This document shows positions 14,586 through 51,940 of a DNA stretch of 64,000 nt, one piece after another. Source of the DNA: an uncultured Candidatus Peribacteria bacterium (GTDB taxonomy: Bacteria; Patescibacteriota; Gracilibacteria; Peribacterales; Peribacteraceae); NCBI GenBank assembly GCA_964449445.1, contig CAYUZT010000006.1:12223-76222 (forward strand), read 5' to 3'. The translations under genes and the position numbers were made by a program. The notes beneath the pieces were generated by a model. That model ran no database searches. It saw only the letters and a list, made by a program, of their open reading frames with translations, and was not told the DNA's origin. The first letter of the stretch is position 1; the number at the start of each line of letters is the position of its first letter.

Positions 14586-15824
14586 ATGTCGCTCCGTACG
14601 CTCATGTTCGGCTGGGAATATCCCCCAAAACATTCGGGGGGTCTTGGCGTTGCGTGCCAGGGACTTGTCCGAGGATTGCTGAAACAGAACGTCGCGGTAA
14701 CGCTCGTGCTCCCCTCCTCTGTCGATACAGGAAGCGATGATGTGGATCTGAGGCACCCTGGCAGTGATCTATTTTCGTCGATCACGGTGAAAAGCGGTCT
14801 GCAACCCTACGACTCGCTGCACACGTATGCGGCTCGCATGGGATCCCTCCCGCTCCCGCTCTCGGAACTCTACGGTCCGGACTTGGGCAGCGCCGTGGAA
14901 CGCTACACCGCTATGAGTGTGGAACTAACGAAGGATGTTCAGCCCGATGTCGTCCACTGCCACGACTGGATGACGCTCGAGGCAGGTATACGGGCGTCGC
15001 GCCACCACCGGCGGCCGCTCGTCGCGCACGTGCATGCGACGGAACTGGACCGAACGCACTTTCGGCCGAATGAATGGATTGCGCTGCGTGAACGAAACGG
15101 TCTTCTGCAGGCGGACAAAGTGATCGCGGTCAGTAACTACACCAAGAGCATTCTCACAAAATATTATGGCATTCCCGGTGATCGCATCGCCGTGATCCAT
15201 AACGGACACGATCCGCATCGCACACACATCACGCCCTGCGTGATTTCGAAAACCGGATCCGCTAAGCGTCCGCTCGTGCTCTTCCTCGGCCGATTGACTG
15301 TGCAAAAAAACCCCTGGCAGTTTCTGGAGATCGCGACAAAAGTCCGGCAACTCAATCCCTCCGTCCAATTCGTGATGGCGGGAGACGGTTCGATGCTTCC
15401 GGAGTTGATTGATCGCGCGTGCGAGCTGGGACTCGGCGACAACATGGTATTTGCAGGCAAAGTGAGTAATCGGGAGGCGCTCAGCCTGTATGCCGCCGCC
15501 GACTGCTTCGTGATGCCATCGGTGAGTGAGCCGTTCGGTCTTGTTGCACTGGAAGCGATTGCCCATGGCACTCCCGTCATCGTCAGCAAACAATCCGGCG
15601 TCTCCGAAGTGCTCGATCACGCATTCAAAGTCGACTACTGGGACTCGGACAAAATGGCCGACTGCATTTTGACGATCCTGCGCGAGGAACCGCTTGCGCA
15701 GCAGCTGCGCAGCGAAGCGCCGCGACTCCTGCAGAGACTCAGCTGGCAAAACCAGGCCGGGAAAGTCCATTCGATCTACCACGACCTCATCCAGTCCAAC
15801 TCCATTCTCCATTCAACCATCTAA
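14586..15824 (+). CDS. Glycosyltransferase, glycogen-synthase-like (GT4/GT5)
   Basis: N-term FGWEYPPKHSGGLGVA; C-term PSVSEPFGLVALEAIAHGTPVIV (E-x7-E region). Confidence 0.75.
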   Translation: MSLRTLMFGWEYPPKHSGGLGVACQGLVRGLLKQNVAVTLVLPSSVDTGSDDVDLRHPGSDLFSSITVKSGLQPYDSLHTYAARMGSLPLPLSELYGPDLGSAVERYTAMSVELTKDVQPDVVHCHDWMTLEAGIRASRHHRRPLVAHVHATELDRTHFRPNEWIALRERNGLLQADKVIAVSNYTKSILTKYYGIPGDRIAVIHNGHDPHRTHITPCVISKTGSAKRPLVLFLGRLTVQKNPWQFLEIATKVRQLNPSVQFVMAGDGSMLPELIDRACELGLGDNMVFAGKVSNREALSLYAAADCFVMPSVSEPFGLVALEAIAHGTPVIVSKQSGVSEVLDHAFKVDYWDSDKMADCILTILREEPLAQQLRSEAPRLLQRLSWQNQAGKVHSIYHDLIQSNSILHSTI

Positions 15825-34772: not shown

Positions 34773-35528
34773 CTACTTTGCAACGAACGCTGTTGCTCCC
34801 AGCCACGCAAGATCAAAGACGGCCTTCATCGTGCGTGCGAATGCGGGACTTTCGACAATGAGACCGAGCAGCTCATCCTGATTGAGCGAAACGATGCCGA
34901 CGGAGTTATTGAAGACAAGCACTTCGTTCTCAAACAGGAACTGATCGCGGTTCACGAGCAAGATCTCCAACAGGTTGTGATCGAATTTCTTGGGAAGAAA
35001 TTGGTCCATCACATGAACGCTCTCCACTGTGGTTGGCGACAGGTAGCGGGTCTTGATCTTCCGCTTTATCTTTTCATGCGTATAGCGCTCGAAGAATTCC
35101 GGAAAGAAGGTGGTCACGCTCTTGAGGTTTGTGTAGCCGAGAATCTCACTCTTGGCAGAGAGGGATTCCGTAAACACGCGCTCCACTCCGTCCTGTCCTT
35201 CGTAAAAACGGATCTTCGGCCGGAACCCAAGCGAGCTCGCAAGGGACTTGAGTGATGGCAAGAGCCCCTTCGCGATATTTAATTTCTCCTCGGCAATCTC
35301 GAGAATTTGTTCAGGAGGCTCAGGTGCGAAACACTTCACACCATTGCGGTTGTACTGACTGAGGAGTCTTTTCGCGAGAAGATTCTCGACAGTGTGATAG
35401 CAACTGACGCGATTCACTCCCGCTTTGCGCGCAATGTTGCTGACGGGACCACCGTTGATTTCCAGAACGGCGAGATACACTTTCGCTTCTTCGTCTGTCA
35501 GCCCGAGCTTGAGGAGTTCTGTGATCAT
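34773..35528 (-). CDS. TrmB-family transcriptional regulator (3)
   Basis: LGLTDEEAKVYLAVLEINGGPVSNIARKAGVNRVSCYHTVENLLAKRLL. Confidence 0.8.
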   Translation of the reverse strand: MITELLKLGLTDEEAKVYLAVLEINGGPVSNIARKAGVNRVSCYHTVENLLAKRLLSQYNRNGVKCFAPEPPEQILEIAEEKLNIAKGLLPSLKSLASSLGFRPKIRFYEGQDGVERVFTESLSAKSEILGYTNLKSVTTFFPEFFERYTHEKIKRKIKTRYLSPTTVESVHVMDQFLPKKFDHNLLEILLVNRDQFLFENEVLVFNNSVGIVSLNQDELLGLIVESPAFARTMKAVFDLAWLGATAFVAK

Positions 35529-35560
35529 AGGCAGATGTCATGGTGAGGCGTTGCGCTGGG

Positions 35561-35627
35561 ATGTCATGGTGAGCGGAGACGAACCATGACTCCATCTGTC
35601 ATCCCTCGTCTCCGCTCGGGATGACAC
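35561..35627. repeat. ~70-bp double-hairpin REP-like element, copy B (inverted relative to 3073-3141)
   Basis: gtcatggt-N12-accatgac (35563-35590) and gtcatccc-N12-gggatgac (35598-35625). Confidence 0.85.
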
Positions 35628-35802
35628 TACCACTGTTGTCGAAGTTTTTCTACAGTTTTTACTGTATGAAAAATGGCTTATAGGAGCCAAAAATATGAGA
35701 TTATATGTAACACTGTTGGACGAAAATGACTCGTTCATGCACACTGTGCACGTCACAGAAAGCCATAACAACTCACTGCCCAATTTGTGCCCCCATTTTT
35801 CT

Positions 35803-37482
35803 ATGTCTTCATCATGTCTACAGTGCAAAAAATCGTTTGAGATCATGAAAGAAGATCTCGAATTCCTCGAAAAGCTCTCACCGGAGATCGGCGGAAAGAG
35901 GTTCGCACTGCCTCCGCCCACACTCTGTCCTGATTGCAGACTCCAACGCCGCCTGGCGCACGTGAATCAACTGAACCTCTACGAGCGGACGTGCGACCTC
36001 TCGGGTGCGACGGTAATCAGCAATCACCATCCGAAGAGTCCATACAAAGTGTACCGGCAGGAAGATTGGCATAGCGACAAGTGGGAGGGGGCAACGTATG
36101 GACGGCCGTTTGATTTCTCACGACCTTTCTTTGAGCAATACCAGGAACTGAGCCTTGCAGTCCCACGACCGAACCTCTTCACGGGATACGAGTTTGATGA
36201 GAACTCGCAATACACGAACCACGCGGGAAAGAATAAGAACTGCTACCTGATCTTCGATAGTGATGAAAATCGGGATTGTTACTACAGCTACAGCATCAAT
36301 CACTGCGTGAACTGCTCCGATTGCTTCCGTACACGCCGCAGTGAGCTCTGCTACGAGTGCGTAGACTGCGTGCAATGCTACGGGAGCGGATTTTTGCAGG
36401 ACTGCGAGAACTGTTCAGATTCTCTCTTTTTGAAAAACTGCATCGGCTGCCGTAGCTGCCTGATGTGCAGCAATCTGAAAAACAAGGAGTACCACGTGGA
36501 GAACAAACCCGTTTCCAAGGAAGAGTACGAGAAGATGCGCGACATGCTCTCATCCCATTCTGTCTTGCAGAACGCGGCAAAGAGATTTGCCAAGCTCAAG
36601 CTGGAACATCCGCAGAAATACATGCATGGCACGCAGAATGAGAATGTGACGGGCGATTACCTGGTCAACTGCAAGAATGCCTTCCGGTGCTTCGATACGG
36701 AGAACCTGTGGGATGGCCGCTACGTGTACCAGGGTTTCATGCCGCTCAAGGATTGCATGGACGTGCACGAATGCGGCGAAGGAGAACTGCTCTACGAGTG
36801 TTCTGTCGCCGGCTATCAAATACAGCGTCTCTGGTTTTCGGCTTACACGCTGGCTGCATCCAGTGACCAGCTCTACTGTCAGCATTGTCCGCATAGTAAA
36901 CACTGCTTTGGCTGCATCGGCATTCGGCGCAAGGAGTACTGCCTCCTCAACACGCAGTACTCTCAGGAAGAGTACGATCAATTGGTACCGAAGATAATCA
37001 AACACATGCAAAAGACGGGTGAATGGGGACAATTCTTTCCAATCAGTCTCTCCACGTTCGGATATAACCAATCGCTTGCACAGGATTACTATCCACTGGA
37101 GAAGAAAGACGTTATGAAACACAACTGGGCATGGTTCGATGAGCCGGATTCAGCTGATCGGTATCTGGGACCGCAAGTGAATGTTCCGGAGAGGATCCAA
37201 GACGTCACCGACGATATCACCAAGCAGATACTGACCTGTGAAACATCGGGAAAGCAGTTCAAAATCATCCCGCAGGAACTCGCACTCTACCGGCAACTCA
37301 GAGTGCCGCTCCCCCGCAACCGCTTCTTTGAGCGCCACCGCAGCCGCCTTGCACAACGGAACCCCCGAACTCTTCACGCACGATCATGCGATAACTGCAA
37401 AACTCCAATCGAAACGACGTACGCCACAAATCGGCCGGAAAAAATCTACTGCGAATCGTGCTATCAGCAATCTTTGATATGA
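35803..37482 (+). CDS. Cys-rich double-zinc-ribbon repeat protein, paralog 4 (first gene of 7-gene operon)
   Basis: ORF 35695 trimmed to ATG 35803 (MSSSCLQCKKSFEI); ends CESCYQQSLI; TGA overlaps next ATG (ATGA). Confidence 0.9.
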   Translation: MSSSCLQCKKSFEIMKEDLEFLEKLSPEIGGKRFALPPPTLCPDCRLQRRLAHVNQLNLYERTCDLSGATVISNHHPKSPYKVYRQEDWHSDKWEGATYGRPFDFSRPFFEQYQELSLAVPRPNLFTGYEFDENSQYTNHAGKNKNCYLIFDSDENRDCYYSYSINHCVNCSDCFRTRRSELCYECVDCVQCYGSGFLQDCENCSDSLFLKNCIGCRSCLMCSNLKNKEYHVENKPVSKEEYEKMRDMLSSHSVLQNAAKRFAKLKLEHPQKYMHGTQNENVTGDYLVNCKNAFRCFDTENLWDGRYVYQGFMPLKDCMDVHECGEGELLYECSVAGYQIQRLWFSAYTLAASSDQLYCQHCPHSKHCFGCIGIRRKEYCLLNTQYSQEEYDQLVPKIIKHMQKTGEWGQFFPISLSTFGYNQSLAQDYYPLEKKDVMKHNWAWFDEPDSADRYLGPQVNVPERIQDVTDDITKQILTCETSGKQFKIIPQELALYRQLRVPLPRNRFFERHRSRLAQRNPRTLHARSCDNCKTPIETTYATNRPEKIYCESCYQQSLI

Positions 37483-39149
37483 AATCACCCGCTTGTGCAC
37501 AGTGCCGACAATCATTGGAGATCACGAAGAATGATCTGAAATTCTATGATCTGGTTTCTCCAGTCATTGCGGGAAAGAAGTACCTCGTCCCTCCCCCCAC
37601 ACTCTGTCCCGACTGCCGCAGGCAACGGCGGCTGAGTTTTCGAAACGAACGAACGCTCTATCACCGAAAATGCGACTTCTCTGGAAAGCAGCTCATCTCA
37701 AATTTTGCGGTGGATGCCGAAAATCCCGCCTACGCGTATGAAGAATGGTGGAGTGACAAATGGGATGCAAAAAGTTTTGGCCGCGCATTCGACTGGAGCA
37801 AAACATTCTTCGACCAGTACGCCGAACTGCAGCGTGTCGTCCCGCAACTAGCACTGCTGGTCTGGAATTCCGAAAACAGCGACTACTGCAACTGTGTGGG
37901 AAACGTCAAAGACTGCTACCTCATTTTTGGCTCTGTGTACTCACAAGATTGCTACTACGGATCGCCGTACTACTCTAAAAACTGCGTCGATACGCTTCTC
38001 GTCCGAGAATGCGAGCGATGCTACGAATGCGTCGATTGCCGCAAGCTCTACGGGTGCATTGGCTGCCGGGACTGTCACAACGGATGCGATCTGCTCTTTT
38101 GCTACGACTGTCAGAGCTGTACCGACTGCATCGGCTGTGCTGGTTTGCGGCAAAAAAAGCACTGCATCCTCAATACGCAATATACAAAAGAGGAATATGA
38201 AAAATTACGCGCAAAATTCGACCTCTCGGATCCGAAAACTCATGCGTCTCTGCGGGAAAAACTTCGCAAAATTTCCCTGGAAATCCCCCATCGGTTCATG
38301 CAGTGCGCGCAGACGGAGAACGTGAGCGGCAATTTCGTGTATCAGTCGAAGAACGTCCACGACTCGTATTATGCCGATCGATGCGAAGATTGCGGCTACT
38401 GCGCACAGGTGGTAGATCTGAAAGACTGTCATGATAACAATTACACCGAAGAGAACGAGCGTTGCTATGAGTACATCGGTAACTACCAGAACAATCACCT
38501 TCTCTTCTCCCGTTTCTCCAATCATGTGTCAGAGAGCATGTACTGCGATAGCTGTTTCACGAGCAAGAATCTTTTTGGATGCATCGGGCTGCGGAATTCT
38601 GAGTACTGCATCCTTAATAAACAGTACACGAAGGACGAATATGAAGACCTTGTTCCGAAAATCATCGCCTACATGCAAAAAACGGGAGAATGGGGAGAAT
38701 TCTGGCCCACGCGGATCAGTCCCTTCGGCTATAACGAGACAGTCGCGCAGGAATACTTCCCGCTCACGCAAAAAGACACGAAGAAAAACGGGTGGAAATG
38801 GCATACGGAAGAAGAATCGAGCGAAAAGTACCTGGGACCGACAGTGGAAATCCCCCGGAAGATTGAAGATGTGACGGAAGAGATCTGTCAGAAAATTCTG
38901 CTGTGTGACGTGACCGAACGACCGTACAAAATCATCCCGCAGGAATTGAAGTTCTATAAGGAGATGGGCATTCCGATTCCCCGCAGCTGTCCCGATGAAC
39001 GTCATAGAGAACGCATGGCACTCCGTAATCCTCGCACGCTGTGGGCGCGAGCATGTTCCAAGTGCGGCAAGGAGATCCGGACAACGTATGCGCCCGATCG
39101 ACCGGAAATCGTCTACTGCGAAGAGTGTTATCTCGCTACTGTGTACTAA
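37479..39149 (+). CDS. Cys-rich double-zinc-ribbon repeat protein, paralog 5
   Basis: ORF 37458 trimmed to ATG 37479 (MKSPACAQCRQSLEI); 41 Cys by hand count; ends CEECYLATVY. Confidence 0.9.
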   Translation: MKSPACAQCRQSLEITKNDLKFYDLVSPVIAGKKYLVPPPTLCPDCRRQRRLSFRNERTLYHRKCDFSGKQLISNFAVDAENPAYAYEEWWSDKWDAKSFGRAFDWSKTFFDQYAELQRVVPQLALLVWNSENSDYCNCVGNVKDCYLIFGSVYSQDCYYGSPYYSKNCVDTLLVRECERCYECVDCRKLYGCIGCRDCHNGCDLLFCYDCQSCTDCIGCAGLRQKKHCILNTQYTKEEYEKLRAKFDLSDPKTHASLREKLRKISLEIPHRFMQCAQTENVSGNFVYQSKNVHDSYYADRCEDCGYCAQVVDLKDCHDNNYTEENERCYEYIGNYQNNHLLFSRFSNHVSESMYCDSCFTSKNLFGCIGLRNSEYCILNKQYTKDEYEDLVPKIIAYMQKTGEWGEFWPTRISPFGYNETVAQEYFPLTQKDTKKNGWKWHTEEESSEKYLGPTVEIPRKIEDVTEEICQKILLCDVTERPYKIIPQELKFYKEMGIPIPRSCPDERHRERMALRNPRTLWARACSKCGKEIRTTYAPDRPEIVYCEECYLATVY

Positions 39150-39151
39150 CC

Positions 39152-40828
39152 ATGCCAAATACTTGCACACAATGTCGGCAATCCTTCGAGATTACGAGTG
39201 AAGATCTCGCATTTTATGAGAAAGCGTCACCGATCATCAATGGAAAGACATACTTGATTCCCTCCCCGACCCTCTGTCCCGACTGCCGCGTGCAGCGGCG
39301 CATGGGGTGGCGCAATGACCGCACGTTCTACCATCGTAAATGTGATTTATCGGGAAAGCAGATCATCAGCCTCTACCCGCCGGTGACGCCGTTCCCTGTG
39401 TACCACCAGAGCGAGTGGTACAGCGACAAATGGGACCCGATGACCTACGGCCGTTCCTTCGATTTCTCACGTCCATTCTTCGATCAGTGGAAAGAATTGA
39501 TGAACACGGTGCCGCGCCTGGGCATTGATATCGTGAATTGCGAGAACAGTGACTACTGCAACTACTGTGGGGATGATAAAAACTGCTATTTGGATATCGC
39601 TGGCGAAGCCAACGAAGACTGCTACTTCGATCTCTTCACCAAATACAGCAAGAACTGCGTCGACTGTACCTTCGCGTACAACTCCACCCTCTGCTACGAA
39701 TGTATTCAGGTCTACAACTGTTACAACGTCCGGTATTCACAGTACATGGAGGATTGTTCTGATTGCGCGCTGTGCTTTGACTGCAAAGGGTCGCGTAATT
39801 GTCTCCTCTGCATCAATCAGCGCAACAAGGAGTACTGCATTCTGAATCAACAATATTCAAAAGAGGAGTTCCAGAAAAAACTCTCCGAGTTGAAGCTGAA
39901 TTCTTGGAAAGGATTACAAGCGGTCTTCGCGCTCTGGAAGAAGATGCGTATCGAGAAAGGCATCTACCGCGATATGTACAACCTGAGCTGCGAGAATGTG
40001 ATCGGCAATGACGTGAAAAATTCCAAGAGCTGCCGCCACTGCTTCAATGTGACTAACAGCGAAGACGGCGCGTACCTCTACGACGTACTCGATGCGAAAG
40101 ATTGCCAGGATATGAACTATTCCCTCTACAAGCCCGAGCTCGCCTACGACACGATCTCCACTCTGCAGATGCGCTCCTCGGCGTTCAATATGGCCTCACA
40201 TTACTGCTCGAGCGTCTTCTACTGCGATCTCACGAACAATTCCAAGAACCTCTTTGGCTGCATCGGCCTTAATCACAAGGAGTACTGCATCCTGAACAAG
40301 CAGTACACAAAGAAAGAGTACGAGGAGCTTCTGCCGAAGATCATTACACATATGGAGACGACGAAAGAATGGGGAAATTTTTTCCCACTGACGATCTCCC
40401 CCTTCGGATACAACGAAACCGTTGCTCAGGAGTATATGCCGCTTAAGAAGACCGATGTGCAGTCACGCACGTGGACATGGCGAGACGAATCTGCGGCCGA
40501 TCAAGAATATTTGGGACCATCGGTTGAAATCCCCGACCGCATAGAGGACGTGAACGACGATATCACCGGAAAAATCCTGAAATGCGCCGGTTCAGGCAAA
40601 CCGTTTAAGATTATTCCCCAAGAATTGAAATTCTATAAGCAGCAAGGAATTCCTATCCCGAGAAAATCGCCCCAAGAGCGTCACAAAGAACGTAATCACC
40701 TCCGTTCTCCACGAAAACTCTGGGAACGAACGTGTACGAAATGCTCGAAGAGCACCACGAGTTCCTATGCACCCGATCGGCCTGAGAAAATCTATTGTGA
40801 AGAGTGCTATTTGAAAGCCGTCTATTGA
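39152..40828 (+). CDS. Cys-rich double-zinc-ribbon repeat protein, paralog 6
   Basis: ORF 39041 trimmed to ATG 39152 (MPNTCTQCRQSFEI), 2 nt after paralog-5 stop. Confidence 0.9.
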   Translation: MPNTCTQCRQSFEITSEDLAFYEKASPIINGKTYLIPSPTLCPDCRVQRRMGWRNDRTFYHRKCDLSGKQIISLYPPVTPFPVYHQSEWYSDKWDPMTYGRSFDFSRPFFDQWKELMNTVPRLGIDIVNCENSDYCNYCGDDKNCYLDIAGEANEDCYFDLFTKYSKNCVDCTFAYNSTLCYECIQVYNCYNVRYSQYMEDCSDCALCFDCKGSRNCLLCINQRNKEYCILNQQYSKEEFQKKLSELKLNSWKGLQAVFALWKKMRIEKGIYRDMYNLSCENVIGNDVKNSKSCRHCFNVTNSEDGAYLYDVLDAKDCQDMNYSLYKPELAYDTISTLQMRSSAFNMASHYCSSVFYCDLTNNSKNLFGCIGLNHKEYCILNKQYTKKEYEELLPKIITHMETTKEWGNFFPLTISPFGYNETVAQEYMPLKKTDVQSRTWTWRDESAADQEYLGPSVEIPDRIEDVNDDITGKILKCAGSGKPFKIIPQELKFYKQQGIPIPRKSPQERHKERNHLRSPRKLWERTCTKCSKSTTSSYAPDRPEKIYCEECYLKAVY

Positions 40829-42495
40829 TGGAAAAAACATGTCTCCAATGCACGGCTGTGTTTGAGATCACGAAAGAGGATCTCGTGTTCTATGAGAAAG
40901 TTTCACCGATCATTGCCGGGAAGACATATCCGATTCCACCGCCCACGCTCTGCCCCGACTGCCGCCTGCAGCGCCGACTATGCTGGCGGAGCGAAACGAA
41001 ACTCTATCATCGCAAATACGACAAGACCGGGAAGCAGATTATCTCGATGTACTCGCAGGACAAACCGCACAAGGTGTACGCACAGGAAGAATGGTGGGGC
41101 GATGGATGGGATCCTTTCGATTATGGAAAGTCGTTTGATTCCACCCGCCCGTTCTTTGAACAATTTGGCGAACTGATTCTCCAGGTTCCACGACCATCTC
41201 TTATCTGCGAACAATCTGAAAATTGCAATTACTGTCACAACACGACATTTTCAAAAAACTCTTACCTTTGTTTTGCTGCTCTGGAAATCGAAAATTGTTA
41301 CTACGATTACATCCTCGTCAAATGCAGGGATGCCATCGACTGCCTGAGCGTGTCGGGTTCCGAACTTTGCTACCAGTGTATCAACAGCAGACAATGCTAC
41401 CGCTGCTCAGATGTTCAGAATGCCATCAACTGCAGAGATTGCACGTTCTGCTTCGACTGTACGGGATGCAAAAATTGCATCGGCTGCGTCGGTCTGCGTC
41501 AAAAAGAGTTCCATGTATTTAATGCACCCGTATCAAAAGATGAATTTGAGAAAATGCGCCGGTCCCTTGACTCCCATACGGCATATGAGGCTTTGCGAAA
41601 GAAGTTCGGACAGCTGAAAATTGGACTGCCGCACCGTGCCAGCTTCCAGGTGAGCTGCGAAGATTGCACTGGTGATCATATTTTCCATTCCAGGCGCTGT
41701 CTTTCCTGTTTTGAAATCGAGGACTGCGAAGACATCGCCTATTCACATAACACAAATAAATTCAAAGATTCCATGGACGTCTTCGGTGCGATGATGGGCG
41801 GAGAATTGCAATATGACAACATTGCGGCAGGTGGAGGAGTCCATGTGATGTTTTCGTACCTCAGCTGGCATAATTCCGACTCGTACTATCTCAATTATTG
41901 TCACAATTCGCGCGACCTCTTCGGATGCATCGGATTGCGGCAGAAGCAATACTGCATCCTGAATACGCAATATACGAAGGAAGAATACGAGCAGCTCCTC
42001 CCAAAAATCATTCAACACATGCAAAAAACAGGAGAATGGGGGCAATTCCTTCCAGTCGCTCTCTCCCCGATTGGTTACAACGAGAGCAATGCATATAGCT
42101 TTTATCCTCTGACCCGTGATGAGTGCCTCGCGCGCGGATGGAAGTGGAATGACGAAGATGATTCTCGCGAAAAATATTTAGGACCGAGTGAGCGTATTCC
42201 CGATTCCATCGCCGACGTTACCGATGATATCTGCCAGAAAATTCTCATCTGCGAAGCAACCGGCAAGCCATACAAGATCATTCCGCAAGAACTCGCTTTC
42301 TATAGAACGATGGCCATCCCGATCCCCAGGAAGTGTCCGGATCAGCGTCACAAAGAAAGAATGACACGCAGGAATCCCCGCAAACTCTGGAAGAGAACAT
42401 GTGCAAAGTGCTCAAAGGAGATCCAGACGACGTATGCACCCAATCGTCCGGAGAAAATCTACTGTGAAGAATGCTATCTGAAGGAGGTATACTAA
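40828..42495 (+). CDS. Cys-rich double-zinc-ribbon repeat protein, paralog 7
   Basis: ORF 40804 trimmed to ATG 40828 (MEKTCLQCTAVFEI); TGATG 1-nt overlap with paralog 6. Confidence 0.9.
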   Translation: MEKTCLQCTAVFEITKEDLVFYEKVSPIIAGKTYPIPPPTLCPDCRLQRRLCWRSETKLYHRKYDKTGKQIISMYSQDKPHKVYAQEEWWGDGWDPFDYGKSFDSTRPFFEQFGELILQVPRPSLICEQSENCNYCHNTTFSKNSYLCFAALEIENCYYDYILVKCRDAIDCLSVSGSELCYQCINSRQCYRCSDVQNAINCRDCTFCFDCTGCKNCIGCVGLRQKEFHVFNAPVSKDEFEKMRRSLDSHTAYEALRKKFGQLKIGLPHRASFQVSCEDCTGDHIFHSRRCLSCFEIEDCEDIAYSHNTNKFKDSMDVFGAMMGGELQYDNIAAGGGVHVMFSYLSWHNSDSYYLNYCHNSRDLFGCIGLRQKQYCILNTQYTKEEYEQLLPKIIQHMQKTGEWGQFLPVALSPIGYNESNAYSFYPLTRDECLARGWKWNDEDDSREKYLGPSERIPDSIADVTDDICQKILICEATGKPYKIIPQELAFYRTMAIPIPRKCPDQRHKERMTRRNPRKLWKRTCAKCSKEIQTTYAPNRPEKIYCEECYLKEVY

Positions 42496-42499
42496 CCTC

Positions 42500-44164
42500 A
42501 TGCCGAATTCCTGCACAGAATGCGCAGCAACATGGAACGTGAGTTCTCGCGATCAGGCGTTCTATGATCAGATGAACGTGCCGCCGCCGAAATCCTGCCC
42601 CGATTGCCGCTTGATGCGCAGGCTCGTGGAAAGGAACGCGCGAACGCTCTACAAACGGAAATGTGATCTGACCGGCAAAGATTTTATTTCTCCCTACCAT
42701 CCCGATCACTCGTTTCCCGTCTATACTCCCGATGCTTGGTGGAGTGACGGATGGGATGAAATGAAGTACGGACACGATATCGACTTCTCTCGTCCCTTTT
42801 TCGAGCAATTCTCACAGTTGCTCAACGCCGTTCCCCATCAGGGACAGTTTGTGGTCCCGGGCACCATGCAGAACAGTGACTACGTGAACTGCGCGGGGTA
42901 CTTGAAGGACTGCTATTTGATCGCCGAAACCGATTACAACGAGCACTGCTACTACGGTAACCGGATTTTTCACAATAAATCGATGGTCGACTGCAGCAAT
43001 GTCTACGAGAACGAGCTCTGCTATGAATCCATCGACTGCATCAAATGCTACGGACTGCGCTTCTGTCAGGAATGCCAAAATTGCAGCGAAAGTTTTTTCC
43101 TGGATAACTGCATCGGCTGCCGCGACTGCATCGGCTGCATCAATCTGCGGCAAAAGCAGTACTGCATCCTGAACAAGCAGCTGACGAAGGAGGAATATGA
43201 GCGACAGAAAGCGGGGCTCAAGCTCAACACCTACGATGGAGTCCAGAAGATGCGGAAAGATGCCGACACGTTCTTTGCGACCCAGCCGCACAAGTCCGTC
43301 CAGAACGAACACAACGAGCGTTCGAGCGGCAACCACCTGTACGACTCCAAGGACGCCGAGGACTGCTACGACTGTAAAGATCTGGAAGACTGTGTACGCT
43401 GCGCCCGCACATTCTCGGTGAAATCTTCAATGGATTACACTTCGTGGGGAGATAAATCTGAATTGATGTACCAGTGTGCCTCCAGCGGCGATAACGCCTA
43501 CAACTTAAAGTTCTGCACCACCTGCACCACCAATAACAGCAATTTGGAATACTGCGCGCATTGTTCGGGCTGCTCCGATTGTTTTGGCTGCGTCGGCACA
43601 CGGAAGAAGAAGTACTGCATCTTCAACAAGCAGTATTCCAAGGAAGAGTACGCGACACTGCGAGACCAATTGATCGCGCATATGAAAAAATCAGGTGAAT
43701 GGGGAGAATTTTTCCCGAAGTCCCTTTGTCCCTTCGCCTACAACGAGACGATTGCCATGGAATACTTCCCATTGACGAAAGAAGAAGCGATCAAACGCGG
43801 ATACCACTGGCGGGACGAGCAGATCGAAAAACCCGATGTTCCTAAAGTGATCCGTGCCGAGCAGTTACCGCAGTCTATCGGTGAGATTCCCGATGATGTA
43901 CTCAACTGGGCTGTCACATGCCTTGTCTCAAAGAGACCGTTTCGGATCATCAAACAAGAACTCGCATTTTATCGGCAGCTGGATCTGCCATTGCCGCGTA
44001 AACATCCCGATGAGCGGCACAAAGAGCGCATTGCCCGGCGTTCCGGCGTTAAACTGTTTCCGCGCGCGTGTGCGAAATGCAGGAAGCAGATGCAAACAAC
44101 CTATGCTCCTGAGAGGTCGGATATTGTCTATTGTGAAGATTGCTACCTCAAAGAGGTGTATTAG
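42500..44164 (+). CDS. Cys-rich double-zinc-ribbon repeat protein, paralog 8
   Basis: MPNSCTECAATWNV; 4 nt after paralog-7 stop; preceded by AAGGAGGTATACTAA. Confidence 0.9.
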   Translation: MPNSCTECAATWNVSSRDQAFYDQMNVPPPKSCPDCRLMRRLVERNARTLYKRKCDLTGKDFISPYHPDHSFPVYTPDAWWSDGWDEMKYGHDIDFSRPFFEQFSQLLNAVPHQGQFVVPGTMQNSDYVNCAGYLKDCYLIAETDYNEHCYYGNRIFHNKSMVDCSNVYENELCYESIDCIKCYGLRFCQECQNCSESFFLDNCIGCRDCIGCINLRQKQYCILNKQLTKEEYERQKAGLKLNTYDGVQKMRKDADTFFATQPHKSVQNEHNERSSGNHLYDSKDAEDCYDCKDLEDCVRCARTFSVKSSMDYTSWGDKSELMYQCASSGDNAYNLKFCTTCTTNNSNLEYCAHCSGCSDCFGCVGTRKKKYCIFNKQYSKEEYATLRDQLIAHMKKSGEWGEFFPKSLCPFAYNETIAMEYFPLTKEEAIKRGYHWRDEQIEKPDVPKVIRAEQLPQSIGEIPDDVLNWAVTCLVSKRPFRIIKQELAFYRQLDLPLPRKHPDERHKERIARRSGVKLFPRACAKCRKQMQTTYAPERSDIVYCEDCYLKEVY

Positions 44165-44217
44165 GAGGCTTGCCGCGGCGAAGTAATTTGCGCGAAGCCG
44201 GGTATACTGACTCTCCT

Positions 44218-45873
44218 ATGGAGCGGACATGCAGACTCACGGGAAAGACGTTCACCGCTTTGCCCCAAGAAATCGCATTGTGCGAGAGCTTGAACGTTCC
44301 CCTCTCCGATATCTGCCCTGAGGAACGTCTGCGCATTTGCATGGCGGAACGCAATGAGTGGAAGCGCTACCATCGAACGTGCGATAAGACCGGCACTCCT
44401 ATAATCAGCGGCTACCCGCCGGGAAGTCCGTACACGATTTATCGAAACGACATCTGGTGGGGCGATAGTTGGGAAGCTCTTGAGTACGGCCGGGAGTTCA
44501 ATTTCTTTAAACCCTTCTTCGAGCAGTTCCTCGCACTCCAGAACGTGGTCCCGCGCGAAGGCACCTCGGTCTTCCAGTGCGAAAACTGCGATTACAACAG
44601 CCATGTCCGATTTTCGCGCAACTGCTACCTCAATTCACTCGCAGCCAACTGCGAAGATATCTACTACAGTTACTGGACGGTGAGAGGGAAGAACTGCATC
44701 GACTGCGCGTATACCAACGACTGCACGCTCTGCTACGAAGTGATCGACGTGAATAATTCCTATGGTTGCATCGCTCTGCAGGATTCCAGTAACTGCAGCG
44801 ACTGTTTTTTCTCGTATCAACTCACCGGGTGCCAAAATTGTCTGTTCTGCACGAACCTGGCCAACAAGACGTACCACATTCGCAACAAGCCCTGCGGGAA
44901 AGAAGAGTTCGCACAAGCGAAGAAAGCGCTTTTGAACGGGTCACACACCCAGTGGCAGAAAGCCTACGACGAGTGGCGGATCATCCGCAGGGCATGCGTG
45001 CACCGGCCTGTGCACATGCTTCACTGCGAGAACGTGTCGGGCGATCACATCTACAATTCCCGAAACTGCACGGAATGTTTTGAGGGAACGAACTGCGAAG
45101 ACTGCGCATTCACAGTGTCGCTCGGCGACTCCAAGAATGTCTGCAGTGGCTACTCCACCGGCTGGCCGGGCAGCGAGCTCGTCTACTTTTCCAGTATGAC
45201 GCGCGGCGGAACGGATCTCGCCTACTGCACGTACAGCTGGTTCTGCAGCAATATGCGGTACTGCGACAGCTGCCAAAGTTCCCACAATTGCTTTGGCTGC
45301 GTTGGTCTGCGTCAAAAGCAGTACTGCATTCTCAATAAGCAATACTCGAAGGAAGAATACGAATCGCTGAAAGCAAAGATCATCGAGCACATGAAGAGCT
45401 CTGGCGAATGGGGCCATTTCTTCCCGTTGAACTCCTTCCCTCACGCGTACAACGAAACAGCAGCACAAGATCGCATGCCGCTCTCCAAAAAAGATGCGGT
45501 CGCCATGAGTTTCCGCTGGAGTGAGTATGAAGAAGATCCACCCGCAATGAAAAAAATCGTTTCACCAGCACAATTGCCGGACGGGCTCGCGCAGATCTCT
45601 GATGAGATCCTCGACTGGGCGATCCGCTGTCAAAAGAGCAGTCGACCGTTCCGCATCATCAAACAGGAACTCGATTTCTACCATCGTTTTGGACTCCCAC
45701 TGCCGCGCATGCACCCAACGGAACGCCACTTGTATCGCATGTCTCAACGCAACCCCATCACCCTGTGGAAGCGGGCATGCATGAAGTGCGGAAAGGAGAT
45801 TCGGACGACCTACTCGCCCGAAAGCACTGAGAAAATGTATTGCGAGGAGTGCTATTTAAAAGAGGTATACTGA
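44218..45873 (+). CDS. Cys-rich double-zinc-ribbon repeat protein, paralog 9 (N-terminal ribbon degenerate)
   Basis: ORF 44140 trimmed to ATG 44218 (MERTCRLTGKTF...ICPEERLRI); rest of protein family-typical; ends CEECYLKEVY. Confidence 0.85.
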   Translation: MERTCRLTGKTFTALPQEIALCESLNVPLSDICPEERLRICMAERNEWKRYHRTCDKTGTPIISGYPPGSPYTIYRNDIWWGDSWEALEYGREFNFFKPFFEQFLALQNVVPREGTSVFQCENCDYNSHVRFSRNCYLNSLAANCEDIYYSYWTVRGKNCIDCAYTNDCTLCYEVIDVNNSYGCIALQDSSNCSDCFFSYQLTGCQNCLFCTNLANKTYHIRNKPCGKEEFAQAKKALLNGSHTQWQKAYDEWRIIRRACVHRPVHMLHCENVSGDHIYNSRNCTECFEGTNCEDCAFTVSLGDSKNVCSGYSTGWPGSELVYFSSMTRGGTDLAYCTYSWFCSNMRYCDSCQSSHNCFGCVGLRQKQYCILNKQYSKEEYESLKAKIIEHMKSSGEWGHFFPLNSFPHAYNETAAQDRMPLSKKDAVAMSFRWSEYEEDPPAMKKIVSPAQLPDGLAQISDEILDWAIRCQKSSRPFRIIKQELDFYHRFGLPLPRMHPTERHLYRMSQRNPITLWKRACMKCGKEIRTTYSPESTEKMYCEECYLKEVY

Positions 45874-45877
45874 GTTC

Positions 45878-47566
45878 ATGCAGCACGCATGCAGCAACTG
45901 CAAAGCAGCATTCGAGATCCCTCAGGACGATCTCGACTTTTACGATCGTGTGTCACCGGTGATTGCCGCGAAGAAGTATGCAATTCCACCGCCAACCCAT
46001 TGTCCCGACTGTCGGCAGCAACGCCGGCTCGCGCAGTGCAATGAGTTCAATCTCTACCCGGGTGAATGCGGTCTCTGTAAAAAGCGAACACTTACGCAAT
46101 TTCCGAAAGACAGTGGAATTCCCTACTACTGCCGAGAATGCTGGCACAGTGATACGTGGGATGCACTCTCGTATGGACGAGATATCGACTTCTCACGCCC
46201 ATTCTTTGAACAACTCTCCGAGTTAAAACGGGCGGTGCCGTCACTCGCGCTCGATGTACAAGGAGAACTGACAAATTCCGAGTACATCCATTTTGCAGGC
46301 AGCTCGAAGAATTGCTATCTGATCATGCACGCAGACTTCTGCGAAGATTGCATGTACGGATACGGCTTCAAACATAATCGTTCCTGCATCGACGGCTTTT
46401 ACAATCTCCAATGCGAACGGTGCTACGACTGCATCGATATTCTCAAATGCTATAACCTCATCCACTGCCAAGACTGTACCAACTGCTCTGATGGAGCATT
46501 CTTACGTGACTGCATTGGCTGCAGAAATTGCTTCCTCTGCGTGGGACAACGAAATAAGGAATTCTGCTTTGGCAATGAGCAAATGACGCGTGAACAGTAT
46601 GAGAAGAAAATCAAAGAGCACGGCCTGCGTTCTCATCGTCAGTACCAAGAATGTGCTACTCAACGAAGGAATCTGGAAGCTACTCACCCGTTCAAATTCT
46701 TCCAGGGAAACAACATCGAAAGCAGCACCGGGGATCATTTGAATAACTGTAAGAATGTTTACCAGAGCTTCGATTGTGAAAACGTGGAGCAGGGAAAATT
46801 CCTCTACCAGATCGTCACCGGTGCCAAAGATGTGCAAGATATCTATCAGTATGGTCTCAACTTGCAACAATCATACGAGTGCGCGATTGTCGGAGAAAAC
46901 AGTTATCATTTGCTCTTTACCTACGGTGGTCATACGGCCTCAGACCTGGTGTATTGCTGGTACGCAGAGCGGAGCAAGTCGTGCTTCGGATGCGTAAACC
47001 TCTCACAGAAAAAACATTGCATCTTCAATAAGCAATACACGCCGGAAGAATATGATGCATTGGTCCCGAAGATCATCGAACATATGAAAAAGACAGGTGA
47101 ATGGGGTCAATTCCTTCCCATGAATATTTCACCATTCGGTTATAACAGGACAACTGCACAGCAATATTACCCTCTCGAAAAATCCGACGCTTTAGAGAAA
47201 AACGCGTGTTGGGATGATATTGATTTACCAGTGCCGGAAGCAACGAAGGTGATTCCCGCGGAGCGCTTACCCGATGACATCAAAGACATTCCCGATGATG
47301 TGCTCAACTGGGCGATCACATGTGAGGTCACTGGCCGACCGTTCAAAATCCAGCCTCAGGAATTGCGCTTTCTTCGCGAGTTCGGACTTCCACTACCCCG
47401 CCGCGCTTGGCATCAGCGTCACCTTGATCGTTTTCAAGCTCGAAATCCAAGAAAATTCTGGAACAGGACGTGTGGGAAGTGCCAGAAAGCCATTCAGACA
47501 ACCTACGCACCAAACAGGCCCGAGATTGTGTATTGTGAAAATTGCTACCTTTCCGAAGTATATTAG
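45878..47566 (+). CDS. Cys-rich double-zinc-ribbon repeat protein, paralog 10
   Basis: N-terminal module keeps four Cys pairs (CSNC, CPDC, CGLC, CREC); ends CENCYLSEVY. Confidence 0.9.
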   Translation: MQHACSNCKAAFEIPQDDLDFYDRVSPVIAAKKYAIPPPTHCPDCRQQRRLAQCNEFNLYPGECGLCKKRTLTQFPKDSGIPYYCRECWHSDTWDALSYGRDIDFSRPFFEQLSELKRAVPSLALDVQGELTNSEYIHFAGSSKNCYLIMHADFCEDCMYGYGFKHNRSCIDGFYNLQCERCYDCIDILKCYNLIHCQDCTNCSDGAFLRDCIGCRNCFLCVGQRNKEFCFGNEQMTREQYEKKIKEHGLRSHRQYQECATQRRNLEATHPFKFFQGNNIESSTGDHLNNCKNVYQSFDCENVEQGKFLYQIVTGAKDVQDIYQYGLNLQQSYECAIVGENSYHLLFTYGGHTASDLVYCWYAERSKSCFGCVNLSQKKHCIFNKQYTPEEYDALVPKIIEHMKKTGEWGQFLPMNISPFGYNRTTAQQYYPLEKSDALEKNACWDDIDLPVPEATKVIPAERLPDDIKDIPDDVLNWAITCEVTGRPFKIQPQELRFLREFGLPLPRRAWHQRHLDRFQARNPRKFWNRTCGKCQKAIQTTYAPNRPEIVYCENCYLSEVY

Positions 47567-47572
47567 CAATTT

Positions 47573-47606
47573 TCACCCTGAGCGAGCGAAGCGAGTCGAA
47601 GGGTGA
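47573..47606. repeat. Hairpin element tcaccct-N20-agggtga
   Basis: 7-bp stem read directly, 6 nt after paralog-10 stop. Confidence 0.75.
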
Positions 47607-47607
47607 G

Positions 47608-47634
47608 GAGTGCTATCTGAAAGAGGTGTATTGA
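47608..47634 (+). pseudogene. Orphan 3'-terminal fragment of a paralog (encodes ECYLKEVY-stop)
   Basis: gag tgc tat ctg aaa gag gtg tat tga, 1 nt after the hairpin; no upstream body. Confidence 0.6.
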
Positions 47635-47690
47635 TCTTGCTCATCACTTAAAAGTACGATATACTTACTTTTGTACTTCCTTACCTTTCT

Positions 47691-47936
47691 ATGACAACGA
47701 AAGTTCTCAAGAGCACAGAACGCGGACAGATCACGCTCCCCAAACAATGGAGGAATCACTTCTCCACCGATAACTACCTGGTGGAAATGCATGATGACAG
47801 GCTCGTGATCATACCCTTTCATCTCAACAAGGCTTCTGATGAAGAAGTGCTCTTTGATGCAGATCGCGACAATGACGGTAAGGGAGTGAGCCCGGACGAG
47901 ATTATCCGCGCTCTCAAGAAAATTCGTCATGGATGA
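47691..47936 (+). CDS. AbrB/MazE (SpoVT-AbrB)-type antitoxin
   Basis: 81 aa; ERGQITLPKQWRNHF looped-hinge-helix motif; overlaps toxin gene by 8 nt. Confidence 0.6.
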   Translation: MTTKVLKSTERGQITLPKQWRNHFSTDNYLVEMHDDRLVIIPFHLNKASDEEVLFDADRDNDGKGVSPDEIIRALKKIRHG

Positions 47937-48180
47937 GATTGAGAAAATTCTCCGCGCCCTCACTCCAAAAGAAAAGGAGGCAATGCTCCTTCTCATGGAG
48001 CAGGTGAAGCGCGACTATCGGAAGATTCCTGGTGTTGTCGCTCTCCAAGGAATGAAAGGGTGGTTTCGCATTCGGATGGGAAAGTATCGAATAATCTTCG
48101 CTGTGGATCCTGTGACCAAGAAAACGGAGATAAGACGCATAACGAGGAGAAATGAGAGCACGTACAAGCGTTTGGGATAG
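47929..48180 (+). CDS. RelE/ParE-family toxin
   Basis: 83 aa; FRIRMGKYRIIFAVDPVTKKTEIRRITRRNESTY, close in pattern to the toxin at 6200. Confidence 0.65.
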   Translation: MDEIEKILRALTPKEKEAMLLLMEQVKRDYRKIPGVVALQGMKGWFRIRMGKYRIIFAVDPVTKKTEIRRITRRNESTYKRLG

Positions 48181-48222
48181 AAATTTCGCAATTCGACGAC
48201 ACCTGAGCGGTATACTGACCTG

Positions 48223-49902
48223 GTGCAGAAATCATGCAAGAACTGCGGCCAATCGTTTCAGATCACGCAGGAGGATCTCGACTTTTACGATCGAGTGTCG
48301 CCGGTGATTGCCGCGAAGAAGTATGCAATTCCCCCACCGACATTCTGTCCGGATTGTCGAATGCAACGGCGGTATACATTTCGGAATGAGCGCATTCTCC
48401 ACCGACGCCAATGCTCTGCAACCGGCAAAGGCATCATTTCCATTTTTGCCCCAGAAGCACCCTATGTTGTCTATAGTACGGATGCATGGTGGACAGATAC
48501 GTGGGATGCGAAAAGTTTCGGACAGGAGTTTGATTTCTCGAAACCGTTTTTTGAACAATTTGAGTCACTATTCCACAAAGTTCCGCAGCTTGCATTGATG
48601 AATGCCGATTGTGAGAACAGCGAATACGCCAATCAGTGCTATCACAACAAGAACTGCTACATGACGATCGCTACAGACCTCAGCGAAGACTGTTATTACG
48701 TCGAAAATTCATTTTCCTGTAGAAATTGCATTGATTGCCTGGGTCTTCACGATTGCGAACTGTGCATAGAGAGTATCAATTCCATTAAGTGCTACAAGAC
48801 ATTTTTCAGCAGGGACTGTGTCAACTGCTCAGACTGTCTGTTTAGCAGTTTTTGTCGCGGCTGCACGTCATGCTTTGGATGTTGCGGGTTACGCAATAAA
48901 AAATACTGCTTCTTTAACGATCAGCTGACGAAGGAAGATTATGAAAAGAGAATACGAGAAATCGAACTCACTCCTTCTGCTATCGCTCTGTATCGTAAAA
49001 AAGCCTACGACTTTGAACTCACACTTCCCCATCCCCATGCCATTCTGACAAATTGCGAAAATAGCACGGGGGACTATATCGAAAATTCCAAGAATGCGAT
49101 CGATTGTTACGACGGTCGCAATGTCGAAGATTCAAAATATTGTTCTCTCGTCCCGCTCATGACGAAAGATTGCTACGACATCACCGGCGGAAGTGGAACA
49201 CTTTTCTATGAGTGCTTTTCTGTTGGACCGGGATCGAACAATCTCTTCTGCGGACTCAGCTGGAACGACGTCTACAACCTGCTGTACTGCTTCCTGTGTG
49301 TGAATAATAGCCGCAATCTATTCGGCTGTGTGGGAATGAAGCACGGCAAGTATTGCATTCTCAACAGGCAATATTCGAAAGAGGAATTTGAAGAGCTCGT
49401 CCCGAAAATCATTGTCCACATGCAAAAAACTGGAGAATGGGGAGAAATGTTTCCTTCATCGCTCTCTCCGTTCGGATACAACGAAACCATTGCTCAAGAG
49501 TATTTTCCCCTTTCAGAAAAAGAAGCGAGGAAGAAGAATTTCAAATGGAGACACCAAAGGGATGAACCTCCGAACGTTAAGAAAATTGTCGATGCACAAA
49601 ACCTCCCGGAGCGCATCAATGATATTCCGGATGACATCCTCAACTGGGCTATCCGTTGCGAAGTCACGGGAAGGCCATTCAGGCTCATTACGCAGGAACT
49701 GGATTTCTATCGTCGGCAGAACTTGCCTGTTCCTAGTCTCCATCCCGACGAGCGACATCGTCGACGCTTTTCTTTACGCAACCCCCGCAAACTCTGGACG
49801 AGAACGTGTACGAAGTGTCGGACAGAGATCCAGACGTCGTATGCTCCCGAGAGACCGGAGATTGTGTACTGTGAAAATTGCTATCTCAGGGAAATGTATT
49901 AA
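48223..49902 (+). CDS. Cys-rich double-zinc-ribbon repeat protein, paralog 11
   Basis: GTG start 6 nt after TATACT; MQKSCKNCGQSFQI; ~66 nt near-identical to paralog 10 at the DLDFYDRVSPVIAAKKYAIPPPT segment. Confidence 0.9.
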   Translation: MQKSCKNCGQSFQITQEDLDFYDRVSPVIAAKKYAIPPPTFCPDCRMQRRYTFRNERILHRRQCSATGKGIISIFAPEAPYVVYSTDAWWTDTWDAKSFGQEFDFSKPFFEQFESLFHKVPQLALMNADCENSEYANQCYHNKNCYMTIATDLSEDCYYVENSFSCRNCIDCLGLHDCELCIESINSIKCYKTFFSRDCVNCSDCLFSSFCRGCTSCFGCCGLRNKKYCFFNDQLTKEDYEKRIREIELTPSAIALYRKKAYDFELTLPHPHAILTNCENSTGDYIENSKNAIDCYDGRNVEDSKYCSLVPLMTKDCYDITGGSGTLFYECFSVGPGSNNLFCGLSWNDVYNLLYCFLCVNNSRNLFGCVGMKHGKYCILNRQYSKEEFEELVPKIIVHMQKTGEWGEMFPSSLSPFGYNETIAQEYFPLSEKEARKKNFKWRHQRDEPPNVKKIVDAQNLPERINDIPDDILNWAIRCEVTGRPFRLITQELDFYRRQNLPVPSLHPDERHRRRFSLRNPRKLWTRTCTKCRTEIQTSYAPERPEIVYCENCYLREMY

Positions 49903-51871: not shown

Positions 51872-51903
51872 CCCACCGTAGCTCCGCCAGGAGCGAAGGT
51901 GGG
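51872..51903 (+). repeat. REP-like hairpin cccaccgtagctccgccaggagcgaaggtggg
   Basis: Outer CCCACC/GGTGGG and inner GCTCC/GGAGC stems; same family as the hmgA insert. Confidence 0.75.
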
Positions 51904-51904
51904 T

Positions 51905-51934
51905 GAAAAGTGTTATTTGGAAGTGGTGTATTGA
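51905..51934 (+). pseudogene. Orphan 3'-terminal fragment of a paralog (encodes EKCYLEVVY-stop)
   Basis: gaa aag tgt tat ttg gaa gtg gtg tat tga, 1 nt after the hairpin. Confidence 0.55.
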
Positions 51935-51940
51935 TCGAAG

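Follow-up and report, generated by a model that had tools for sequence, protein, structure and literature searches.

Translationally coupled overlapping genes, in which ATGA or TGATG overlaps join the stop codon of one gene to the start codon of the next, are a familiar feature of operons. A second relevant arrangement is the leaderless transcription unit of Actinobacteria and Deinococcus (GeneMarkS-2 'group C', PMC6028130; for D. deserti, PMC4007540), whose signature is a Pribnow box 6-8 nucleotides (nt) before the start (PMC6028130). Here we examine a block of seven paralogous genes (paralogs 4-10, positions 35803-47566; Table 1) in a 64,000-nt stretch of DNA, hereafter the window, that is part of contig C6 of the 1.4-Mb, 19-contig genome of an uncultured Candidatus Peribacteria bacterium (Candidate Phyla Radiation, CPR). 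Different joints of this block resemble one or the other system. Junctions 4/5, 5/6 and 6/7 are like coupled overlapping genes (-4, +2 and -1 nt, one strand, no promoter box), except that the genome apparently uses no Shine-Dalgarno (SD) sites, so that coupling here would have to proceed by reinitiation alone. The joints ahead of paralogs 8, 9 and 10 are like group C units, with a Pribnow-type box 6-9 nt before the start and no SD site, both of them genome-wide traits. They differ from group C in belonging to Peribacteria, and in that the Val-Tyr-stop end of the preceding paralog supplies the box at two joints, in codons that depend on the spacing to the next gene.

None of tight packing, stop/start overlaps or leaderless promoters is new. 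In a limited literature search we found no description of a conserved C-terminal dipeptide that, together with the stop, forms the -10 box for the paralog downstream, its codons depending on spacing in many CPR genomes. A sequence-only reading of the window had taken the seven genes to be one operon, co-transcribed and possibly translationally coupled, such that the divergent copies would be made together rather than alternately. Our favoured reading, which we hold with moderate confidence, is that the block comprises a coupled unit of paralogs 4-7 and three genes with leaderless promoters of their own, joined by read-through, and is not a single obligatory operon.

The geometry of the block was observed directly. 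When re-measured on the sequence, all six junctions turned out as the sequence-only reading had given them: an ATGA overlap at 4/5 (37479-37482, -4 nt), a 2-nt gap at 5/6 (stop ending at 39149, ATG at 39152), a TGATG overlap at 6/7 (40826-40830, -1 nt), and gaps of 4, 53 and 4 nt at 7/8 (42495/42500), 8/9 (44164/44218) and 9/10 (45873/45878). The whole block lies on one strand with short or overlapping stop/start junctions, and none of its junctions holds a terminator-like site. Such joints are common in this genome: about 116 of the 681 same-strand neighbour pairs could start -4 to +8 nt from the upstream stop, long stop-to-stop open reading frames (ORFs) cover some 96% of the sequence, and among adjacent pairs of family genes roughly one in four is equally tight. 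The packing is therefore real, yet ordinary for a compact genome. Junction runs of -1, -1 and +2 nt recur in other genomes.

SD-like words are not enriched before the first ATGs of the genome; if anything they are depleted. The lack of enrichment fits the altered anti-SD core of the 16S rRNA, UCUCC instead of CCUCC; the 3' tail of this RNA (contig C18) reads CAUCUCCUUA, or GGAACAUCUCCUUA in a longer reading. What does pile up before first ATGs is a TAYAHT box, which at -15 to -12 has 85 matches against about 3 per position elsewhere. Sequences aligned on the box give the consensus G(G/C)TATACT, with TATACT as the top hexamer and -12 as the top offset, and the box stands 6-9 nt before the start codons. 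Most boxed starts (121 of 144) lie more than 30 nt past the previous same-strand stop, which fits where promoters are expected. Upstream of the box the genome-wide logo contains only a faint TTG, about 17 nt away.

The same TATACT hexamer stands before paralogs 8, 9 and 10, separated from the ATG by 6, 9 and 6 nt, distances within the leaderless range of PMC6028130; as in the leaderless genes described there, these starts have no SD site and the signature is a property of the whole genome. At 7/8 and 9/10 the box consists of the Val-Tyr codons and the first base of the stop of the upstream paralog, and at 8/9 it is embedded in a degenerate paralog-tail remnant (GGGTATACTGA). Neither a promoter-like box nor an SD site was found at junctions 4/5, 5/6 and 6/7. 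A single operon is expected to be free of internal promoters, and here candidates for such promoters precede three of the seven genes; paralogs 8, 9 and 10 can probably be transcribed on their own. A GGTATACTGA-like string is also present before paralogs 1, 3 and 11 and before a copy on contig C9, even without a preceding paralog body, and the related GCTATACT precedes the copy on contig C7. At -12, paralog 12 has TAGAAT and the copy on contig C8 has TACTAT. Relic tails carry the string ahead of paralogs 1, 3, 9 and 11 and a C9 copy; where the upstream paralog has been lost, just 15-25 nt or so with the box remain beside the start.

The end of paralog 7 reads AAGGAGGTATACTAA, and one might take its K-E-V codons (AAGGAGGT) for an SD site serving a polycistronic mRNA rather than for part of a transcription signal; the 16S tail could still pair with GGAG. 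We consider this highly improbable and have rejected SD coupling, on account of the missing genome-wide enrichment of SD-like words (indeed their possible depletion), the wrong spacing (12 nt from GGAGG to the ATG), and the variability of the K-E codons that give AAGGAGG. The residues ahead of Val-Tyr differ among the box-bearing joints (KE, EA, KA, NT, ET, KT), whereas TATACT is constant.

The codons of the Val-Tyr tail bear on the function of the box. Family genes were found by profile in 100 loci, and their last two codons were set against the distance to the consensus start of the next paralog, with codon counts restricted to Peribacteria-like loci with a GC content of at least 0.44. The Val-Tyr tail of the protein is conserved in the family regardless of what lies downstream. 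Its codons depend on the context: GTA TAC is used in 19 of the 22 tails in which the next paralog starts at +4 to +8 nt, in none of the 18 with a start at -4 to +3, and in 9 of 140 over all contexts other than +4 to +8, the -4 to +3 class included (Fisher P = 3e-15). At least six of these nine exceptional tails have some ATG 3-7 nt past the stop. Clustering the junctions at 65% or more identity of the flanking proteins leaves the contrast at 17 of 19 clusters with GTA TAC versus none of 6 (P = 1.6e-4). GTATACT remains constant amid freely varying spacers (4-8 nt) and adjacent synonymous sites. Scored directly before the family starts of the same loci, the box occurs at 20 of 22 joints of the +4 to +8 class, at 0 of 15 of the -4 to +3 class, and at 35 of 137 free-standing family heads, among them paralogs 1, 3 and 11 and the C7 and C9 copies; in a control window 22 nt further upstream it occurs in 3 of 174. 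These patterns indicate that the box is under selection, at a position that suits a promoter and not a ribosome-binding site.

A possible objection is that all seven genes nevertheless form one polycistronic operon, with a single promoter upstream of paralog 4 and stop/start coupling along its length, and that TATACT is a silent by-product of the Val-Tyr-stop end. The block does have a single strand, gaps of at most 53 nt and no terminator-like junction site; reinitiation is possible across a 4-nt gap, and Val-Tyr is kept in the protein whatever follows. We judge this explanation unlikely, however, in view of the spacing-dependent use of GTA TAC just described and the variation of the synonymous sites and spacers around the box. 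Moreover, the 8/9 box lies in a non-coding spacer, and an identical box at an identical distance marks ordinary intergenic starts throughout the genome.

A second objection, that the GGTATACTGA strings are functionless scars inherited with a duplication unit (tail, spacer and next gene) and that the link to spacing reflects common descent, appears to us quite improbable. It would draw on the relic tails with the string before paralogs 1, 3, 9 and 11 and the C9 copy, and on the orphan tails found after hairpins (see below). Identity among the array paralogs is only 34-50% for protein and 60-78% for DNA, however, and neutral synonymous sites should by now be randomised; at such saturation the box is not explained by simple inheritance of a duplication scar. 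Nor do scars fit the invariance of the 7-mer in 17 of 19 independent junction clusters with differing spacers, or the survival of nothing but the short box-bearing segment beside a start after loss of the upstream paralog.

In our favoured reading of a coupled unit plus three separately promoted genes, paralogs 4-5-6-7 would be expressed on one leadered transcript that begins in the spacer between paralog 4 and the divergent TrmB-like regulator gene, and the genes downstream of paralog 4 on that transcript would be translated by termination-reinitiation. At the TATACT boxes before paralogs 8, 9 and 10, RNA polymerase would start at the ATG or a few nt from it, yielding leaderless mRNAs. Read-through from upstream probably occurs too, because the joints have no room for terminators, and the expected outcome would be nested transcription units (4-10, 8-10, 9-10 and 10). 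The earlier proposal of co-transcription and coupling thus holds up for paralogs 4-5-6-7, where there are overlaps, no box and no terminator room, and is weakened by the boxes at 7/8, 8/9 and 9/10. That the seven copies are made together is likewise supported in part; in light of the boxes and the spacing-dependent codons, obligatory joint production is not a safe inference, since paralogs 8, 9 and 10 carry their own candidate promoters.

Several points weigh on the other side. Promoter activity is here deduced from sequence only; no -35 element is clearly recognisable at the junctions, and a generic sigma-70 scan, which requires both hexamers, flags none of the joint sites. The 4-nt gap is short enough for reinitiation, and the box could be redundant there. 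The promoter and the start of paralog 4 both appear ambiguous, and the junction counts are phylogenetically not fully independent. Short Logan contigs that contain paralog 8 match the window exactly, with ends (41062 and 42470) that fall off any start and are thus uninformative on transcription start sites.

Tight spacing is routinely taken to mean one operon, and here a 4-nt gap conceals a probable promoter in the last codons of the upstream gene. If this is true, distance-based operon prediction would fail in such genomes, and the locus would provide a clear case of a transcription signal constraining synonymous codon choice. It would also supply ready-made short promoter fragments for gene work in CPR bacteria; gene-expression signals of CPR/Patescibacteria are almost unstudied.

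We put forward one further idea only tentatively, as possible but doubtful: that the Val-Tyr-stop tail was recruited as a portable promoter, making 'tail fragment + 4-9 nt + ORF' a self-contained leaderless cassette. A new tandem copy, or one left behind, would then keep a working promoter, which would account for the relic tails before paralogs 1, 3, 9 and 11 and would help explain the ease with which arrays gain and lose members in CPR genomes (0-38 copies). Together with TrmB-like regulators at array heads, such cassettes could allow the cell to tune single members of a zinc-solenoid binding repertoire.

Table 1. Genes and sequence features of the paralog block and its flanks (window coordinates)
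Feature	Coordinates	Strand	Remarks
TrmB-like helix-turn-helix regulator gene	34773..35528	-	divergent from paralog 4; Pfam PF01978 TrmB, E = 5.6e-9
Spacer, probable leader of paralog 4	35529..35802	+	inverted repeats; pyrimidine-rich just before the ATG
Paralog 4	35803..37482	+	559 amino acids (aa) from the family-consensus start; alternative of 595 aa from 35695
Paralog 5	37479..39149	+	556 aa; start overlaps paralog 4 stop; no box
Paralog 6	39152..40828	+	558 aa; 2-nt gap; no correctly placed box
Paralog 7	40828..42495	+	555 aa; TGATG overlap with paralog 6; no box
TATACT box	42488..42493	+	GTA TAC (Val-Tyr) + T of the TAA stop of paralog 7; -12..-7 of paralog 8 ATG
Paralog 8	42500..44164	+	554 aa; predicted leaderless start
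TATACT box	44203..44208	+	in 53-nt spacer; starts at -15 and ends 9 nt before paralog 9 ATG
Paralog 9	44218..45873	+	551 aa
TATACT box	45866..45871	+	GTA TAC + T of the TGA stop of paralog 9; -12..-7 of paralog 10 ATG
Paralog 10	45878..47566	+	562 aa; last gene of the block
Hairpin directly 3' of paralog 10	47573..47606	+	-16.5 kcal/mol, z = -2.6; no U tract

The junction geometry depends on the start codons, which the sequence-only reading had obtained by trimming long N-terminal extensions to the Met before the conserved CxxC. The trimmed starts agree with the family consensus and, for paralogs 5-10, with existing gene calls. Of the 348 family genes in the 100 loci, 318 carry a start codon where the consensus of the family places it (ATG in 296 of the 318); among the 150 best cluster representatives, about 144 begin no more than 10 residues from profile position 1; and independent gene calls on identical public contigs give 556, 558, 555, 554, 551 and 562 aa for paralogs 5-10. 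The longer N-terminal forms of paralogs 5, 6, 7 and 9 fall within the conserved tail of the preceding gene. Paralog 4 is the ambiguous case. The same public gene calls choose its 595-aa form, whose ATG at 35695 has AGGAG 8 nt upstream. For the 36 added residues there is no homologue anywhere, and 35803 is the start that agrees with the family consensus; the start is best treated as ambiguous. That every trimmed protein would begin 4-6 residues before its first CxxC does not hold for paralog 9 (MERTCRLT), in which the N-terminal CxxC has been lost.

Two further copies have unusual starts. Paralog 11 (48223-49902) is shortened to 434 aa by the public gene calls, presumably due to the GTG at its family-consensus start; a TATACT box stands at -12 of this GTG. 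At the family-consensus ATG site a paralog-9-like copy (C9:15362-17011) has ATA, with TAAAAT as a box 8 nt before it; its start may lie six codons further on, or the copy may be decaying.

On the evidence of sequence and structural modelling, the proteins, about 555 aa long, are predicted to be cytoplasmic and to carry zinc ribbons at either end, plus two beta-solenoid blocks lined with cysteines. Their cysteine content is 6.3-7.9%, and none of the paralog proteins has a signal peptide. A confident AlphaFold2 model, computed for paralog 8 from 69 sequences (predicted local distance difference test, pLDDT, 86; predicted template modelling score, pTM, 0.84), places N-terminal zinc ribbons first, then two beta-solenoid blocks split by a helical hairpin, and after these a helical/loop region that is conserved, with zinc ribbons again at the C terminus. 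Conservation is highest in the C-terminal third, and residues ~240-360 are the most variable.

The C-terminal ~35 residues weakly resemble small stand-alone treble-clef CxxC-x17-CxxC zinc-finger proteins; the family proteins differ in being 555 aa long, with two solenoid blocks and a remainder that has no Pfam or NCBIfam match. In these two databases no family spans the proteins, and only the last ~35 residues have matches (PF23477, TIGR04272 and PF13451, E = 3e-4 to 3e-3), all below cut-off: 20.9 bits against 27 for PF23477 and 17.3 against 36 for TIGR04272. The C-terminal CxxC...CxxC pattern itself is present. A sequence search of the PDB returned only LIM-like zinc fingers at E > 0.01. Foldseek searches of the PDB and of viral models gave nothing significant; the best PDB matches to the solenoid were left-handed beta-helices (gamma-carbonic anhydrase, LpxA/LpxD, GlmU; E = 2.3e-3). 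E-values of 2e-3 or more, template modelling (TM) scores of at most 0.24 and the lack of a hexapeptide motif place the family outside that fold group. PADLOC defence models did not match paralogs 4 and 8. The cysteine-rich proteins described in the Peribacteria genome paper are different, being much larger and exported, and this family is absent from it. As a low-confidence guess, the proteins might be cytoplasmic binding scaffolds that are stabilised by zinc and make up a repertoire controlled by TrmB-like regulators. The solenoid repeat (residues 281-371 of paralog 8; 147-232 of paralog 4) matches phrog_15341 (E = 1e-7), a phage family of unknown function and the sole match in PHROGs.

Paralogs 4-10 are seven of the 12 family copies of ~555 codons that lie on the + strand at 25395-51836 of the window. 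Four more copies on other contigs bring the genome to 16, or about 2% of its 1.4 Mb. Close homologues are labelled Candidatus Peribacteria or Peregrinibacteria (CPR, Patescibacteria). Paralogs 4, 5, 6 and 7 are mutual closest relatives (46-50% identity). At 50% identity the family comprises at least 2458 clusters (E <= 1e-30), and its homologues number at least 8000; copies per genome range from 0 to 38 across 41 related genomes, and inside the genus from a single weak and partial match up to 20. All seven genes of the block are intact and diverged long ago; the family to which they belong, a huge and uncharacterised one of Patescibacteria, has neither a known function nor a known fold relative. 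A conserved array order was considered and rejected: clear orthology is restricted to the genus, and order differs even there.

Variable copy number and order, together with the variable central region (residues 240-360), might suggest a contingency repertoire with expression of a single paralog at any moment, in the manner of antigenic or phase variation. We find this very hard to credit. Every copy is intact and has its own start; we saw no silent cassettes, simple-sequence tracts or invertible promoters; the 60-78% DNA identity speaks against ongoing conversion; and the proteins have no signal peptide. One pair of paralogs is locally closer than the rest: the 5' ends of paralogs 10 and 11 (45861-46027 and 48206-48372) are 78% identical over 167 nt, including 17 nt upstream with the box, and typical DNA identity in the array, 60-70%, is well under this value.

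TrmB-like regulators frequently accompany the family. We counted 64 of them in 45 of the 100 family loci, 36 being divergent from a family gene at most 600 nt away. In the window, regulators of ~250 aa lie at 27149-27916, 29772-30530 and 34773-35528 (- strand), usually divergent from array heads. The spacer that one of them shares with paralog 4 has no leaderless-type box at -16 to -12 of the ATG at 35803. The spacer before paralog 2 contains a perfect palindrome, CTGTTCTTC-aa-GAAGAACAG, and its half-site occurs again just before the ATG.

The hairpin behind paralog 10 is the first of the block, and may be a 3' end or a stabiliser. It belongs to a set of about 23 related hairpins dispersed through the genome, which have the core GAGCGAAGCGA in common and differ in their G+C-rich stems (e.g. 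47573-47606, C9:~14890-14930 and C8:~74000); several lie right behind family genes. They could be elements like repetitive extragenic palindromes (REP-like) or terminators without a U tract. Orphan paralog tails at 47601-47636 (ECYLKEVY-stop) and 51901-51936 (EKCYLEVVY-stop) are 83% identical, each sitting just past a hairpin behind the stop of an intact paralog, and a C9 copy shows a like geometry.

Paralogs 10 and 11 are separated by a toxin-antitoxin-like gene pair (47691-47936 and 47929-48180, + strand, 8-nt overlap), of which one member is MazE/AbrB-like (PF04014, E = 2e-4) and the other ParE/RelE-like (PF05016, E = 2e-3), both under the Pfam cut-offs. A sodium:solute symporter gene (PF00474; region 30609-34300) stops 17 nt short of paralog 3, with a TATACT box within the gap, and paralog 3 is followed by a DUF2000 gene (PF09391, E = 5e-27).

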